Assembly (NCBI RefSeq): GCF_021246445.1
Contig: NZ_JAJQXW010000001.1
Coordinates: forward strand, 1,070,168-1,134,167
DNA length: 64,000 nt
From: Rhabdothermincola salaria
GTDB taxonomy: Bacteria > Actinomycetota > Acidimicrobiia > Acidimicrobiales > Acidimicrobilacustridaceae
Direction of reading: 5' to 3'
Within the stretch, counting starts at the first letter, position 1; each line of letters begins with the position of its first letter. Made by a program: the position numbers and the translations under genes. This document shows, in pieces, positions 58,387 through 63,923 of this stretch. Under the pieces are notes generated by a model, which saw only the letters and a program-made list of their open reading frames with translations, searched no databases and had not been told where the DNA came from.

Positions 58387-60063
58387 TCACGGGGCGATGA
58401 AGGTCTCGTTGAACAGGACCATGGAGGCGATGGTGGGCACCACGCCGTGCACGCTCGGGTTCCACGCGATCAGCTCGGGCTGCTGCGACAGGATCACGCC
58501 CGGCATGTCACGGTCCCAGATGACCTGGATCTCGTCGAGGATCTCCTGGATGCGAGCCGGGTCGTCGGCCCCACGCAGCTCGATGAGCAGCTCGTCGATC
58601 TGGGGGTCCGAGTAGCCGGACGGGTTGGCCAGGCTGGTGCTCGACAAGTTGTTGTTGAGCGCCACCCACGGCTCGGCGTCGGCGATGTTCATGCCCCACG
58701 AGATCATGTCGTAGTTGGCGTCGATGAACACCCGGTTGATCATGTCGGTGATGGTCGGCAGGACCTCCACCTCGATGTCGAAGCCCACGTTGTTCAACAG
58801 CGCCTGGATCGAGAAGGCCCGGTCCTCGGAGCCCACCGCGGTGATGGTGCTCATCTTGCCGTCCCAGCCGGTCTCGGCCTTGTACTCCTCGAGCAAGCGA
58901 CGAGCCTCCTCGGGATCAGCCTCCACCGTGCTCTCGGTCGCCCACTCCGAGCGGGGACCCATGAGCGAGTTCGTCGGGAAGCCCATGCCGTCGTAGCCGC
59001 GGTCGTTGTAGGCCTGCGAGTCGATGGCGAGGCGCACCGCCATGCGGACCCGCTCGTCGGCGGTGGGGCGGTCGGTCTGGTCGCGCACACCGTTGTTCAT
59101 GAGCAGGAACTCACCGCTGTTGTTGAGGGTCAGGAACCCCGGGTAGCCGGCGTCGATGACCTCGCGAGCCGGGACCGGCAGACGGATGAACCCGGCCTCG
59201 AAGTCGTCGGACAGCACCGCTTCGGCCTTGGCCGCGTCGCCCTGCAGGTGAGCGAAGCGGATCTGGTCGAGGTACGGGCCCTCGCCCCAGTAGTCCTCGT
59301 TGGCGTCGAGGGCGAGCACCTCGTTGGCCGCGAACTCGGCCAGGTTGGCGAACGGGCCGGCCCCGACGGGGCTGTCGGCCCAGTTCTCGGGATCGGCCTG
59401 GATGGCCGTCGGCGAGGCGATGTAGCCGCCTTGGTGAGCCAGGAGGTACGGGAAGCCCGACCACGCCGTCTCGAGGTTGTAGGTCACCTCGAGCGGACCG
59501 GTGACCTCCCACGTCATCCCCTGCATGACCGGTGCGATGCGGGCCCGGTTGTCGATGAGGCGCTGCATGTTGAACGCCACCGCTTCGGCGTCGTAGGGCG
59601 TGCCGTCGGTGAACGTGATGTCGGGACGCAGCGTGAGGGTCCACTGGGTGAAGTCCTCGTTGGGCTCGAGGCTCTCGGCCAGGTGGGGCACGAAGTCGTT
59701 CGTCTCGAAATCGAAGCGCATGAGCACGTCGTAGAGGGCGGCCATCTCGATGCCGCCGGCGGTGCCGGCCCCGTTGACCTTGGCCGGGTCGAGGGTGGTA
59801 ATGGGCGAGTACATGCCCATGGTGAGCGTGCCGCCCTCGACGGGTTCCATCTCCTCCTGGGTGTTGACGAAGCCGGTGTTGAGTGCACCGTCGTCGATGA
59901 TCTCCTCGCCGGCGGCGTCGCCCCCGTTGCCCCCGTTGCCCCCGTTGCCTCCGTCACCGCTCTCGTCGTCGCTGGCGCACGACGAGGCCAACAGCGCCGC
60001 GAACAACGCGATGGCCATCATGACGAGCCAACGCGGGCGCGTCGACGTTCCTGCTCTGTGCAT
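58387..60063 (-). CDS. ABC transporter substrate-binding lipoprotein, family 5 (peptide/nickel type), tandem copy 1
   Basis: 558 aa; signal plus lipobox LLASSCAS; SBP_bac_5 architecture; about 90+% identical to the adjacent copy. Confidence 0.85.
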   Translation of the reverse strand: MHRAGTSTRPRWLVMMAIALFAALLASSCASDDESGDGGNGGNGGNGGDAAGEEIIDDGALNTGFVNTQEEMEPVEGGTLTMGMYSPITTLDPAKVNGAGTAGGIEMAALYDVLMRFDFETNDFVPHLAESLEPNEDFTQWTLTLRPDITFTDGTPYDAEAVAFNMQRLIDNRARIAPVMQGMTWEVTGPLEVTYNLETAWSGFPYLLAHQGGYIASPTAIQADPENWADSPVGAGPFANLAEFAANEVLALDANEDYWGEGPYLDQIRFAHLQGDAAKAEAVLSDDFEAGFIRLPVPAREVIDAGYPGFLTLNNSGEFLLMNNGVRDQTDRPTADERVRMAVRLAIDSQAYNDRGYDGMGFPTNSLMGPRSEWATESTVEADPEEARRLLEEYKAETGWDGKMSTITAVGSEDRAFSIQALLNNVGFDIEVEVLPTITDMINRVFIDANYDMISWGMNIADAEPWVALNNNLSSTSLANPSGYSDPQIDELLIELRGADDPARIQEILDEIQVIWDRDMPGVILSQQPELIAWNPSVHGVVPTIASMVLFNETFIAP

Positions 60064-60169
60064 CAGGTCCCCCCTGGTGAGTAGCGCTCGGTTTCGAGCC
60101 TTGCCACTCCGAAACTAGCCCAGGTCGAGTGCCATATGTCACACCGGGGCCCGAACCCTCGACCCTCCC

Positions 60170-60215
60170 CCGACGCGGGACTGCCCCCGCCGCGGGTCGC
60201 GCCGGGGGCAGTCGC
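60170..60215. terminator. Inverted repeat gactgcccccg...cgggggcagtc just downstream of SBP copy 2 stop
   Basis: 11-nt arms seen directly; lies between the tandem SBP genes. Confidence 0.45.
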
Positions 60216-60230
60216 TCGGTGCCGGAGAGG

Positions 60231-61898
60231 TCAGCCGGTGATGAAGGTCTCGTGGAACAGGACCATGGAGGCGATGGTGGGCACCACGCCGTGCACGCTC
60301 GGGTTCCACGCGATCAGCTCGGGCTGCTGCGACAGGATCACGCCGGGCTGGTTGTCACTCCAGATGACCTGGATCTCGTCGAGGATCTCCTGGGTGCGGG
60401 CCGCGTCGTCGCTGGCGCGCAGCTCGATGAGCAGTTCGTCGAGCTGTGGGTCGCTGAAGCCCGACGGGTTGGCCAGGCTGGTGCTCGACAGGTTCTGGTT
60501 GAGCGCCACCCACGGCTCGGCGTCGGCGATGTTCATGCCCCACGAGATCATGTCGTAGTTGGCGTCGATGAACACCCGGTTGATCATGTCGGTGATGGTC
60601 GGCAGGACCTCCACCTCGATGTCGAAGCCCACGTTGTTCAACAGCGCCTGGATCGAGAAGGCCCGGTCCTCGGAGCCCACCGCGGTGATGGTGCTCATCT
60701 TGCCGTCCCAGCCGGTCTCGGCCTTGTACTCCTCGAGCAAGCGACGAGCCTCCTCGGGATCAGCCTCCACCGTGCTCTCGGTCGCCCACTCCGAGCGGGG
60801 ACCCATGAGCGAGTTCGTCGGGAAGCCCAGGCCGTCGTAGCCGCGGTCGTTGTAGGCCTGCGAGTCGATGGCGAGGCGCACCGCCTTGCGGACCCGCTCG
60901 TCGGCGGTGGGGCGATCGGTCTGATCGCGCACACCGTTGTTCATCAAGATGAACTCACCGCTGTTGTTGAGGGTCAGGAACCCCGGGTAGCCGGCGTCGA
61001 TGACCTCGCGAGCCGGCACCGGCAGACGGATGAACCCGGCCTCGAAGTCGTCGGACAGCACCGCTTCGGCCTTGGCCGCATCGCCCTGCAGGTGAGCGAA
61101 GCGGATCTGGTCGAGGTACGGGCCCTCGCCCCAGTAGTCCTCGTTGGCGTCGAGGGCGAGCACCTCGTTGGCCGAGAACTCGGCCAGGTTGGCGAACGGG
61201 CCGGCCCCGACGGGGTTGTCGGCCCAGTTCTCGGGATCGGCCTGGATGGCCGTCGGCGAGGCGATGTAGCCGCCAGTCCACGCCAGCACCCACGGGAAGC
61301 CGGACCACGCCGTCTCCAGGTTGAAGGTGAGGGTCTGGGGGTCGGTCACCTCCCAGGTGAGGCCGACCAGCAGCGGACGCAAGCGGCTGGCGCTGTCGTT
61401 GTGGCGCTGCAGGTTGAAGGCCACCGCCTCGGCGTCGTAGGGCGTGCCGTCGGTGAAGGTCACGTCCGACGGCAGCGTGAGGGTCCACTGGGTGAAGTCC
61501 TCGTTGGGCTCGAGGCTCTCGGCCAGGTGCGGCACGAACTCGCCGGTGTCGTAGTCGTAGCGCATGAGCACGTCGTAGAGGGCGGCCATCTCGATGCCGC
61601 CGGCGGTGCCGCTGCCGTTGATCACGGTGGGGTCGAGGCTGGTGATGGGCGAGTACATGCCCATGGTGAGCGTGCCGCCCTCGACGGGCTCCACCTCGTC
61701 CTGGGTGTTGACGAAACCGGTGTTGAGCGCACCGTCGTCGATGATCTCCTCGCCGGAGGCGTCGCCGCCGTTGCCCCCGTTGCCGCCGTCACCGCTCTCG
61801 TCGTCGCTGGCGCACGACGAGGCCAACAACGCTGCGAACAACGCGATGGCCATCATGACGAGCCAACGCGGGCGCGTCGACGTTCCTGCTCTGTACAT
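60231..61898 (-). CDS. ABC transporter substrate-binding lipoprotein, family 5, tandem copy 2
   Basis: 555 aa paralog; differs mainly in residues about 160-200 and in GGN repeat number. Confidence 0.85.
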   Translation of the reverse strand: MYRAGTSTRPRWLVMMAIALFAALLASSCASDDESGDGGNGGNGGDASGEEIIDDGALNTGFVNTQDEVEPVEGGTLTMGMYSPITSLDPTVINGSGTAGGIEMAALYDVLMRYDYDTGEFVPHLAESLEPNEDFTQWTLTLPSDVTFTDGTPYDAEAVAFNLQRHNDSASRLRPLLVGLTWEVTDPQTLTFNLETAWSGFPWVLAWTGGYIASPTAIQADPENWADNPVGAGPFANLAEFSANEVLALDANEDYWGEGPYLDQIRFAHLQGDAAKAEAVLSDDFEAGFIRLPVPAREVIDAGYPGFLTLNNSGEFILMNNGVRDQTDRPTADERVRKAVRLAIDSQAYNDRGYDGLGFPTNSLMGPRSEWATESTVEADPEEARRLLEEYKAETGWDGKMSTITAVGSEDRAFSIQALLNNVGFDIEVEVLPTITDMINRVFIDANYDMISWGMNIADAEPWVALNQNLSSTSLANPSGFSDPQLDELLIELRASDDAARTQEILDEIQVIWSDNQPGVILSQQPELIAWNPSVHGVVPTIASMVLFHETFITG

Positions 61899-62017
61899 CA
61901 GGTCCCCCTGGTGAGGTCGTGCTCCATTTCGAGCCTTGCGGGTCCGAAACTACTCCACGCGCGAGGTGGCCGACGTCACACGATGAGACGGGCCGCTCGC
62001 GCGCCGGTCCGGCCGCC

Positions 62018-62215
62018 TCATCCGGCGAGGAAGGCGTCGTGGAACAGCACCATCGAGGTGATGGTCGGCACGATCCCGTGGACGTCGGGGTTCCAGGCGA
62101 TGAGGGTCGGCTGCTGGGACAGGATCACCCCGGGCGTGTCCCGATCCCAGATCACCTGGATCTCGTCGATGAGCTCCTGGGAGCGCACGGGGTCATTGCT
62201 CGAGCGCAGGGGCAC
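62018..62215 (-). pseudogene. 3' remnant (last about 65 codons) of a third family-5 SBP copy
   Basis: Translation ...ELIDEIQVIWDRDTPGVILSQQPTLIAWNPDVHGIVPTITSMVLFHDAFLAG aligns to the C-termini of the two full copies; no N-terminal 490 aa. Confidence 0.7.
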
Positions 62216-62230
62216 TCCTCTCCATCCCGC

Positions 62231-62866
62231 TCAACGGGACCGGTGCAGACCGTCCAGCACGTGGTCGACGAGGTCTTCGGCCACGTCCTCGTCCACCGGG
62301 AGGCCGGCGATCAGGTCGCGGTACACGAGCGGGCCACTGAAGAGGTCGAGAGCGATGTCGAGGTCGAGGTCGTCTCGCAGCTCACCCCGCTCGACCCCCC
62401 GCACCAGGATCTCGCGCAGCACGGCGCGCCGGCTCACCAGGTAGCGACCCCAGGCCTCGCGCAGCTCCGGCTGCTCGAAGGCCGCCGACAGCAGGCTGGG
62501 CAGGACGTCGCCACGGGGGCCGGTCATCAGCCGCAGCGAGAAGCGCTGGTAGGCGTGGAGGTCGCCCCGCACGGTGCCGGTGTCGGGCACCGGCGGTCGG
62601 AGGGTGAGGGTGGAGAGCGCGGCCAGGACCAGCTCCGTCTTCGTCGGCCACCGCCGGTAGATGGTGGCCTTGCCCACCCCGGCCCGGTCGGCGATGGCGG
62701 CGATGGTCGTGCCCCGCACACCGTGGCGCCCCACCAGCTCGATGGTGGCGCTCAAGATGGCAGCGTCGGCCTCGGAGTCGCGCGGCCTCCCGGGCCGGCG
62801 ACCGGCCGGCCCGTCGCCTGCCTCCGCCGCTGCCGTGCCCCTCCGGCTCGTCGCACTCGTCGCCAT
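62231..62866 (-). CDS. TetR/AcrR family transcriptional regulator
   Basis: HTH TTIAAIADRAGVGKATIYRRWPTK; ATG at 62866 (MATSATSRRG). Confidence 0.8.
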   Translation of the reverse strand: MATSATSRRGTAAAEAGDGPAGRRPGRPRDSEADAAILSATIELVGRHGVRGTTIAAIADRAGVGKATIYRRWPTKTELVLAALSTLTLRPPVPDTGTVRGDLHAYQRFSLRLMTGPRGDVLPSLLSAAFEQPELREAWGRYLVSRRAVLREILVRGVERGELRDDLDLDIALDLFSGPLVYRDLIAGLPVDEDVAEDLVDHVLDGLHRSR

Positions 62867-62972
62867 CGCCTCGATGCGGCGAACACTACGCGTCTGCTTC
62901 GACCGACGGCCGGTCCGGAGTCCGCCGCTCGCCGGGCGGGGCTGGGCGGGCACCGGGAGGGGCCGGCGGGTC

Positions 62973-63923
62973 CTAGAAGTAGATGATCTTCTTGGCCCGC
63001 TCGACGACCTCGTCGATGTCGTCGGTCCAGGCGCCGGTGGAGAGGTACTTCCACCCTCCGTCGCACACGATGAACACGATGGTTCCCTCGTCGATCGCCT
63101 CGGCGACCTTGCAGGCGCCGGCGAGCGCGGCGCCGGCGGAGATGCCCGAGAAGATGCCGCACTCCTCGGCGAGTCGTCGGGTGTAGACGATGCTCTCCTT
63201 GGGGCGCACGATGCGCTTGCGGTCGAGGAGCTCGGGTCCGCCCCACTTCTCGTAGACCGGCGGGATGTAGCCCTCGTCGAGGTTGCGCAGGCCCTCGACG
63301 AGCTCGCCGATGGGCGGCTCGACGGCGATGACCTGGATGTCGGGGTTCTGTTCCTTCAGGAACGTGCCGACGCCCATGAGGGTGCCGCTGGTGCCGAGGC
63401 CGGCCACGAAGTGGGTGATCTCGGGGCAGTCGCGCCAGATCTCGGGGCCGGTGCCCTCGTAGTGGGCCCGTGGGTTGGCCTCGTTGGCGTACTGGTAGAG
63501 GAACGCCCACTCCGGGTGCTCGTCGGCCAGGGCGATGGCCCGCCGCACCGCGCCGTTGGACCCCTCGTTGCCCGGTGAGAGGATGATCTCGGCCCCGAAG
63601 ACCTCGAGGAGCTGGCGGCGCTCGATCGAGACGTTCTCGGGCAGCACGATCTTGATGGGATAGCCCTTGATGCGGGCGATCATGGCCATGGCGATGCCGG
63701 TGTTGCCCGACGACGGCTCGATGATGGTCTTGCCCGGGCTGAGCGTCCCGTCGGCCTCGGCCTCCTCGATCATCTGGAGGGCGATGCGGTCCTTGACCGA
63801 CCCGGCCGGGTTCTGACCCTCCATCTTGCCGAGAATCCGCACCTTGGGGTTGGGGCTGATGCGGCTCACGTCGACGAGCGGCGTGTCGCCGATCATGTCG
63901 AGCACCGATGAGTACACAGCCAT
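62973..63923 (-). CDS. cysK: cysteine synthase (O-acetylserine sulfhydrylase)
   Basis: 316 aa; PLP-lysine motif NPAGSVKDR, GTGGT loop; GGAAGGG RBS upstream. Confidence 0.9.
   Translation of the reverse strand: MAVYSSVLDMIGDTPLVDVSRISPNPKVRILGKMEGQNPAGSVKDRIALQMIEEAEADGTLSPGKTIIEPSSGNTGIAMAMIARIKGYPIKIVLPENVSIERRQLLEVFGAEIILSPGNEGSNGAVRRAIALADEHPEWAFLYQYANEANPRAHYEGTGPEIWRDCPEITHFVAGLGTSGTLMGVGTFLKEQNPDIQVIAVEPPIGELVEGLRNLDEGYIPPVYEKWGGPELLDRKRIVRPKESIVYTRRLAEECGIFSGISAGAALAGACKVAEAIDEGTIVFIVCDGGWKYLSTGAWTDDIDEVVERAKKIIYF

Follow-up and report, generated by a model that had tools for sequence, protein, structure and literature searches.

Substrate-binding lipoprotein genes in a tetR-linked tandem array of Rhabdothermincola salaria: probable partial gene conversion and a putative relic of an older paralogue

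Results

Layout of the locus

In a 64-kb window of the Rhabdothermincola salaria genome, i.e. the whole stretch of DNA analysed, to whose positions all coordinates refer, two complete genes for family-5 substrate-binding proteins (SBPs) and the 3' end of a third lie in tandem beside the gene of a TetR-family regulator. We read this locus as a tetR-linked tandem array of cluster-C SBP lipoprotein paralogues that probably evolved by birth and death and by partial gene conversion, and we assign this reading a probability of about 0.7. On the minus strand the order is a cysM-like gene, tetR, a 65-codon 3' stump of an SBP gene, SBP copy 2, SBP copy 1 and murI. 3' of copy 1, murI is followed by a gene for a metallo-β-lactamase (MBL)-fold protein, rph, rdgB and a CsoR-like gene, all on the minus strand. 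The start-to-start distance of the two full genes is 1844 nt, and their products and that of the stump are 100% identical to the NCBI R. salaria proteins P0001 (copy 1), P0002 (copy 2) and P0123 (stump). In minus-strand order, with subfeatures next to their gene, the parts of the array are:

62973-63923, minus strand: cysM-like PALP enzyme, upstream neighbour of tetR
62231-62953 (longest open reading frame, ORF), minus strand: TetR-family regulator (Pfam TetR_N and TetR_C_11)
62018-62215, minus strand: the stump, a putative relic of a copy 0; its 65 codons correspond to amino acids (aa) 491-555 of copy 2
61899-62017, minus strand: intergenic region with the conserved promoter/leader of copy 2 (palindrome and ribosome-binding site GGGGGA)
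60231-61898, minus strand: SBP copy 2 (555 aa), assigned by Pfam SBP_bac_5, AlphaFold, Foldseek and orthology
61263-61427, minus strand: central block of copy 2 (aa 158-212), which retains an orthologue-like state
60165-60227, minus strand: GC-rich 30-nt inverted repeat just 3' of the copy 2 stop codon, terminator-like, without a T-run
60064-60164, minus strand: conserved promoter/leader of copy 1, with its palindrome at 60092-60117
58387-60063, minus strand: SBP copy 1 (558 aa), a derived paralogue with intact ORF (Pfam SBP_bac_5)
59419-59583, minus strand: central block of copy 1 (aa 161-215), divergent and fast-evolving on the copy 1 branch
58654-58985, minus strand: copy 1 half of a 332-nt identical tract, the copy 2 half of which is at 60498-60829
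59907-59954, minus strand: 9-nt GGN (Gly-Asn-Gly) repeats of copy 1 in the linker 3' of the lipobox; the copy 2 repeats are at 61751-61789

Identity and fold of the binding proteins

Copies 1 and 2 are family-5/cluster-C substrate-binding lipoproteins. They match SBP_bac_5 (PF00496) with 189 and 187.6 bits, respectively (cutoff 32.4), covering positions 1-365 of the 368 of the profile. The export signal was judged by the lipobox pattern match alone: in both copies residues 19-29 fit the PS51257-type pattern with Cys29 as lipobox cysteine, as is the case for 51 of 54 homologues, and a Gly/Asn-rich linker follows Cys29. The AlphaFold model of copy 2 (predicted local distance difference test score, pLDDT, 91; predicted template modelling score, pTM, 0.86) has the cluster-C fold. 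Foldseek searches with this model gave E values of 1e-30 to 1e-34 and template modelling (TM) scores of 0.74-0.85 to the liganded structures of DppA, AapF and AgaA; NikA, OppA and an MppA structure are also among the fold matches, the sequence identity being 18-24%. None of the named specificity families represented by NCBIfam equivalogs (NikA/Opp5A, GsiB, DppA, OppA, SapA, CntA) was reached, the best equivalog being Opp5A_nikA with 87 bits (cutoff 600) and the others scoring far under their cutoffs. Away from this array, the genomes also encode a third paralogue of full length with 59-61% identity (P0007 in R. salaria; P0008 at 10001-11647 of contig L032).

Mosaic structure of copies 1 and 2

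As an earlier sequence-only reading of this DNA had described, the array holds two full SBP genes that are nearly identical at their ends and diverge in a central block. Copies 1 and 2 share 91.5% nucleotide identity (134 differences in 1665 aligned nt), and along the coding sequence (CDS) their identity is 100% at nt 1081-1410, ~80% at nt 1411-1590 and 58-70% at nt 481-660. The longest identical run spans 332 nt, as against 65 nt on average and at most 216 nt over 10,000 permutations, and with the differences per 90-nt bin showing a variance-to-mean ratio of 8.4 the divergence is block-wise rather than even. At third codon positions the identical run extends over 139 codons (permuted maximum 102). 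The GGN repeat count differs as well, copy 1 having one 9-nt unit more (alignment gap at CDS nt 110-118; repeat family D5). Beyond the central block, the copies diverge at aa 75-160 (10-13% nt) and at aa 461-524 (12-20% nt).

Close relatives of the array are known solely as metagenome contigs; a single metagenome scan gave one locus, L029, and a scan of genome contigs found relatives at no more than 38% identity. We determined nonsynonymous and synonymous divergence (dN and dS; omega = dN/dS) segment by segment for copies 1 and 2 against the SBPs of contigs L029, L002, L004 and L030. At aa 1-74 the two copies are mutually closest (dS 0.158 vs 0.27 for each of them to L029), whereas at aa 75-160 copy 2 is nearest to the SBP of L029 (dS 0.088 vs 0.197 to copy 1). 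These segment relationships conflict in the way gene conversion would leave them, on the basis of one relative (L029) and 172 codons. At aa 216-460 and 525-558 the dS between the copies is 0.01-0.13, as compared with 0.32-0.85 to L002.

As aa 75-160 of copy 2 have their nearest counterpart in L029 and not in copy 1, the split of the two copies would predate the split of these lineages, i.e. the copy 1 paralogue appears to be older than the separation of R. salaria and L029, the closest sampled relative. Given such an old split, the near-identical segments would stem from conversion instead of recording a recent duplication. Gene conversion between copies 1 and 2 is supported by these sequence comparisons, and the 332-nt identical tract appears to be the most recent conversion tract.

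The central block and the ligand pocket

The central block (55 codons) differs between copy 1 and copy 2 by dN 0.33 and dS 0.60, and the divergence jumps sharply from 1-8% to 30-39% nt across ~160 nt. Since the block dS of ~0.6 is about as deep as the divergence between species, the diversification would be old and not recent, and the block appears to be an old divergence that escaped homogenisation. From the earlier proposal of ongoing recombination with diversification, the recombination is borne out as gene conversion, in line with the block-wise divergence and the incongruence of the segments, whereas the notion of recent or ongoing diversification has to be given up in view of this depth.

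Replacements in the block accumulated unequally. Three-taxon branch lengths give a branch dN of 0.23-0.28 for copy 1 vs 0.05-0.10 for copy 2 (bootstrap P 0.97-1.0) and a similar branch dS for both. Copy 2 retains the orthologue state (NLQRH..SRL.PLL.G.TW..TD.QT.TF and LAWTGGY); copy 1 carries NMQRLIDNRARIAPVMQGMTWEVTGPLEVTYN and LAHQGGY and, as judged among 52 homologues, exchanges an Asp conserved to 94% for Gly and a Thr conserved to 98% for Glu.

In the model of copy 2 the block comprises the end of helix 156-168, a loop, the β-hairpin 180-194 and a short helix. In the structure of liganded NikA, Arg97, Trp100 and Arg137 belong to the pocket (PMC11091072). In a phmmer alignment, NikA Arg97 corresponds to the conserved Arg175 of copy 1, Trp100 to a Pro in both copies and Arg137 to His210 of copy 1, the position being occupied by Trp in copy 2 and its close orthologues. 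Part of the central block probably lines the binding pocket, for which this alignment gives low-resolution support. The claim that the ligand-facing region diversified holds insofar as the differences in the block align with NikA pocket residues, but the process was not symmetric, with copy 1 alone being accelerated. In sum, the diversification is real but old and limited to copy 1, and it would fit relaxed constraint as well as a new specificity; copy 1 probably binds another ligand, or binds less well.

Alternatively, copy 1 might have acquired its block through recombination with a diverged allele from outside or with another paralogue. Such an import would be compatible with the abruptness of the jump over ~160 nt and with the position of copy 1 outside copy 2, L002, L004 and L030 in the block, but no donor was found. 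The block is unlike the paralogues P0007 and P0008 and unlike the central-block patch of the copy 0 relic in L029 (see below), which blastn matched to copy 2 and the L002 SBP and not to copy 1, and a database search with the block returned nothing closer than 45% identity among its three matches (a protein search with the stump as similarly short query also gave three matches). Moreover, dS on the copy 1 branch does not exceed that of copy 2 and only dN is raised, which fits an acceleration in place. We regard an import as unlikely.

Copy 1 might also be a decaying duplicate, with its block under relaxed constraint and the rest of the gene being repaired by conversion from copy 2. An omega of ~0.6-1.1 in the block on the copy 1 branch and the exchange of the highly conserved Asp and Thr residues would agree with decay. 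Nevertheless, the ORF of copy 1 is intact, having neither a frameshift nor a premature stop, the gene has its own conserved promoter/leader, at seven positions of the block it is copy 1 and not copy 2 that holds the family consensus, and the other unconverted segments have an omega of 0.45-0.47. Decay of copy 1 is therefore doubtful in our view.

The stump as putative relic of an older paralogue

The earlier suggestion that a 3' stump of a third copy lies beside tetR is confirmed at the nucleotide level: homology extends over ~62007-62205 with 72-80% in-register identity to copy 2, and past 62205 identity falls to background (17-37%). The stump ORF begins ~15-18 nt 3' of the TGA stop codon of tetR. 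NCBI annotates the stump as a hypothetical protein of 56 aa (P0123), and JGI also calls a gene.

In L001-L003 the corresponding locus contains cysM, tetR, a 92-codon ORF, a single SBP gene (77% identical) and murI. This 92-codon ORF is an SBP C-terminal fragment and aligns with the R. salaria stump plus its flanks. A neighbour-joining tree of the last 62 codons unites the stumps of R. salaria and L002 with 97% bootstrap support and copies 1 and 2 with 96%, and over the same codons dS is 0.62-0.75 from the stump to copies 1 and 2 vs 0.18 between the copies.

These relationships bear on the proposed tandem triplication, i.e. on the idea that all three units arose in one recent event, that the third copy was truncated and that the ligand-facing region is being actively diversified by unequal recombination. 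Regular unit spacings of 1844 and 1787 nt, the long identical stretches and the unequal number of GGN repeats would speak for such an event. The stump, however, clusters with the tetR-following relics of relatives with a single SBP gene and not with copies 1 and 2, its dS to the copies is far above that between them, the central block has diverged to between-species depth and aa 75-160 of copy 2 are nearer to L029 than to copy 1. We consider a recent triplication extremely improbable and do not retain the term.

L029, with a TetR ~85% identical and an SBP N-terminus 88.5% identical to those of R. salaria, is closer to R. salaria than L001-L003 are. 3' of tetR, it has a relic with patches corresponding to copy 2 CDS nt 433-555, 848-916, 1248-1326 and 1603-1668 and with a frameshift, and a degenerate SBP leader is kept right after the tetR stop. 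In terms of the copy 2 CDS, the relic extends from nt ~1390 to the end in L002 and from nt ~1473 to the end in R. salaria. No relic is found in L004 and L030, where the order is cysM-tetR-SBP-murI, or in L033, where the SBP gene follows cysM after 120 nt (L033 1-420) without a tetR gene. The latter indicates that TetR is not an obligatory partner of the SBP. L033 represents the lineage of P0005, an SBP with 77% identity.

As the three deletion patterns in R. salaria, L002 and L029 cannot be derived from one another, copy 0 would have been essentially complete in their common ancestor. The truncation is of the kind expected for a pseudogene, 65 of ~555 codons being left in R. salaria, 92 codons in L002 and 4-5 patches with a frameshift in L029. 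The stump appears to be the decaying remnant of an older paralogue, copy 0, that predates these lineages.

The stump is nevertheless constrained. Between R. salaria and L002 its omega is 0.17 (dN 0.087, dS 0.51; 62 codons), i.e. it shows purifying selection and not the value near 1 of neutral evolution, and its dS resembles that of the neighbouring genes (0.33-0.59). The 28 differences are distributed 7/4/17 over the three codon positions, and 9 amino-acid changes are observed vs a neutral expectation of 19.3 +/- 2.0 (p < 2e-4; Fisher p = 3e-5). This might mean that the stump is a functional small gene, encoding an SBP C-terminal fragment of 56-92 aa under selection, and the open frame in R. 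salaria and L001-L003 as well as the gene calls of both NCBI and JGI could be taken in the same sense. Yet L029 keeps only the last 21 codons in frame, with frameshifted patches before them, L004, L030 and L033 have no relic at all, and neither the start codon nor the 5' boundary is conserved, a 126-nt segment of L002 being absent in R. salaria. Moreover, the fragment has no signal peptide, and its modelled part consists of the C-terminal piece of helix 484-495, one helix, one long strand and four 2-residue strands. As this segment is embedded in a larger modelled fold, it is unlikely to fold independently. A functional gene of this kind seems quite improbable to us. Very unlikely, too, is the more specific idea of a domesticated SBP fragment (56-92 aa) co-expressed with TetR, e.g. 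as a cytoplasmic modulator of TetR or of the SBPs, under which the absence or breakage of the fragment in other lineages would be due to secondary loss. Returning to the stump as a relic, the simplest reading of its constraint is late, independent inactivation, copy 0 having been a working gene most of the time, as the independent deletion histories suggest.

Some further observations concern the relic. The central-block patch of copy 0 in L029 (913-991) translates to QRHVDNASRAAALLRGTTFTATD, which by eye resembles neither copy 1 nor copy 2 as much as it does the paralogues P0007-P0009 (GTTFTATDP); this likeness hints at an origin of copy 0 from an older paralogue lineage. The ENA contig L028 (1-664) carries a 92-codon SBP C-terminal fragment, the start of which coincides with the stop codon of an ORF that lies upstream and is unrelated. 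Its SBP homology begins at NISDAEPWVALNQ, so that its 5' boundary is nearly that of the L002 relic next to a different neighbour, and it might reflect either another, independent truncation event or a chimeric assembly. A degraded full copy underneath tetR, suggested by a repeat member at 62687-62724 with an offset of 1787 nt, was dismissed as a chance match, the in-register identity being only 25-52%. A read-through fusion of TetR and stump, which are in the same frame (62215-62233), is probably coincidental, as the two are not in frame in L002. Finally, a start codon and left junction shared by the relics of R. salaria and L002, as seen in a pairwise alignment, is less likely than a simple 126-nt deletion.

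Conserved leaders, tetR and cysM

Each full copy is preceded by a conserved region of ~100 nt that consists of GTGTGAC, a spacer of 19-21 nt, TAGTTTCGGA-N3-GCAAGGCTCGAAA and CTCACCAGGGGGGACCTG-ATG. In the copy 2 leader the palindromic motif reads TAGTTTCGGAnnnGCAAGGCTCGAAA (61927-61952). Within the window TAGTTTCGGA-N3-GCAAGGCTCGAAA occurs only at 60092-60117 and 61927-61952 (both minus strand), with 0 occurrences expected by chance. The leader is conserved in R. salaria (both copies), L029 and L001-L003, with partial conservation in L004 and L030, and in the clade of R. salaria, L029 and L002 the palindrome is located ~40 nt 5' of every SBP start (L001 5275-5300, L002 2417-2442, L029 1408-1433). 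Folding of the motif into a 10-bp hairpin is possible, but covariation is sparse and amounts to one compensatory pair. No similar motif is present upstream of tetR, Rfam gave nothing credible at the leader or the locus, and scans for consensus promoters and terminators found nothing, nor did the terminator scan pick up the hairpin-like inverted repeat 3' of the copy 2 stop (60165-60227). The palindrome is a candidate TetR operator or mRNA leader element.

The regulator combines an N-terminal helix-turn-helix domain (PF00440, 58.6 bits) with a C-terminal ligand domain (PF16859, 105.9 bits), which identifies it as a member of the TetR family; compared with homologues of 204 aa, its start is probably the ATG at 62866. 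Homologues of tetR are found at the same position in L001-L004, L029 and L030. The cysM-like protein is 99% identical to those of L001-L003 (dN/dS 0.024, dS 0.33), the TetR protein only 80-81% (dN/dS 0.27), so that constraint is sharply unequal between these adjacent genes.

Transporter genes

The claim that these are orphan SBPs, lacking an adjoining permease or ATPase gene, stands for the 64-kb window, of which only ~1.1 kb lies past tetR: no pair of Walker A and LSGGQ motifs occurs in it, and tblastn gave no DppB/C/D/F-like match at E <= 0.01 in the window, L001-L004 or L029-L033. The positive control for tblastn was provided by L006-L026, which do have permease/ATPase-type genes. The L032 locus of the paralogue P0008 is also without a permease or ATPase gene in the 10 kb upstream and ~1.6 kb downstream of it. 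Among distant acidimicrobial relatives (30-38% identity) two permease genes lie directly 3' of the SBP gene, and relatives from Anaerolineae and Pararhodobacter have a full operon. A lack of transporters across the whole acidimicrobial SBP clade, as implied by a regular-expression search for Walker A and LSGGQ, was rejected after tblastn had found permeases next to the SBP gene in the distant relatives, and is limited to the close relatives.

Discussion

The anatomy of the array, its mosaic pattern, the orthology of the relic, the asymmetric rates, the fold of the encoded proteins and the lack of transporter genes in the window are demonstrated; divergence of the ligands, control by TetR and the use of a distal permease we infer. 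Based on these findings, the history of the array might be as follows. Copy 2 would represent the gene that all close relatives have conserved between murI on one side and tetR (or cysM) on the other. Gene conversion would have repeatedly overwritten aa 1-74, aa 216-460 (including the 332-nt run) and aa 525-558, leaving the central block (aa 161-215) unconverted, and in this block replacements would have accumulated several-fold faster on the copy 1 branch. R. salaria, L029 and L002 would have inherited an essentially full-length copy 0 from their common ancestor and then have reduced it by lineage-specific deletions. Each full copy may be transcribed from its own conserved promoter/leader, the palindrome of which may serve as TetR operator, and both proteins probably are membrane-anchored and may pass their ligand to an ABC (ATP-binding cassette) permease encoded elsewhere.

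Several points weigh against this picture. The mapping of the pocket relies on a sequence alignment with ~25% identity, and as two nearly invariant residues of the family are replaced in copy 1, decay instead of a new specificity is possible. The dN and dS values were obtained for segments of 31-130 codons and have wide confidence intervals. A copy 1-type orthologue was found in no other sequence, the L029 contig stopping before that position, so that the age of copy 1 hangs on one segment of 86 codons. The purifying selection on the stump (omega 0.17) is not what a relic would show if it had been drifting freely, and the roles ascribed to TetR and to a distal permease are conjectural.

Tandem or dispersed SBP paralogues of the same SBP_bac_5 fold that differ in their pockets and lack their own permease and ATPase are also known as the orphan cluster-C SBPs AliA, AliB, AliC and AliD of pneumococci, which use AmiCDEF, and as the OppA paralogues of Borrelia burgdorferi (PMC5736914, PMC7822543, PMC11192437). 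In contrast to these systems, the R. salaria array has a linked TetR regulator and lies within a conserved cysM-murI block, and the sharing of a permease would have to be assumed. NikA from E. coli, CntA and YntA are among the best matches in sequence and fold, and the central block aligns with the segment of NikA that harbours Arg97, Trp100 and Arg137. However, the identity is only ~22-25%, the NCBIfam nickel equivalogs score 74-87 bits vs cutoffs of 393-600, the equivalent of the Ni ligand His416 falls outside the alignment and the window contains no nik permease genes.

Concerted evolution with escape of specificity-determining segments is a general phenomenon in bacterial tandem paralogues. 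The array of R. salaria shares with such cases identical tracts that are broken by an old unconverted block in the probable specificity-determining part of the protein, and segments that diverged unequally; what is added here is the relic of an older third paralogue that appears to have been whittled down independently in three lineages. We regard the array as ordinary birth-and-death evolution with partial conversion, i.e. nothing unusual in kind, and it does not open up a new kind of biology. It may rather be regarded as a clean and well-dated bacterial case that combines conversion, a probable specificity block resistant to conversion and independent loss of a paralogue in three lineages. 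It also draws attention to a Rhabdothermincola-like clade of Acidimicrobiia in which family-5 SBP lipoproteins without transporter genes lie by a TetR gene in the cysM-murI block. For annotation, the same ligand should not be assumed for copies 1 and 2, and the 56-aa "hypothetical protein" is best described as a putative gene relic.

The use of another system's transporter by an orphan SBP has a precedent in E. coli MppA, which uses OppBCDF. Among the more distant relatives, L006, L008 and L010-L016 (Ca. Poriferisocius and other metagenome-assembled genomes of Acidimicrobiales) contain modules of one SBP gene and two permease genes, which are repeated in L006, L008, L010 and L014. No ABC ATPase match was found near these modules in flanks of up to 10 kb on each side, which suggests that their ATPases are encoded elsewhere and shared.

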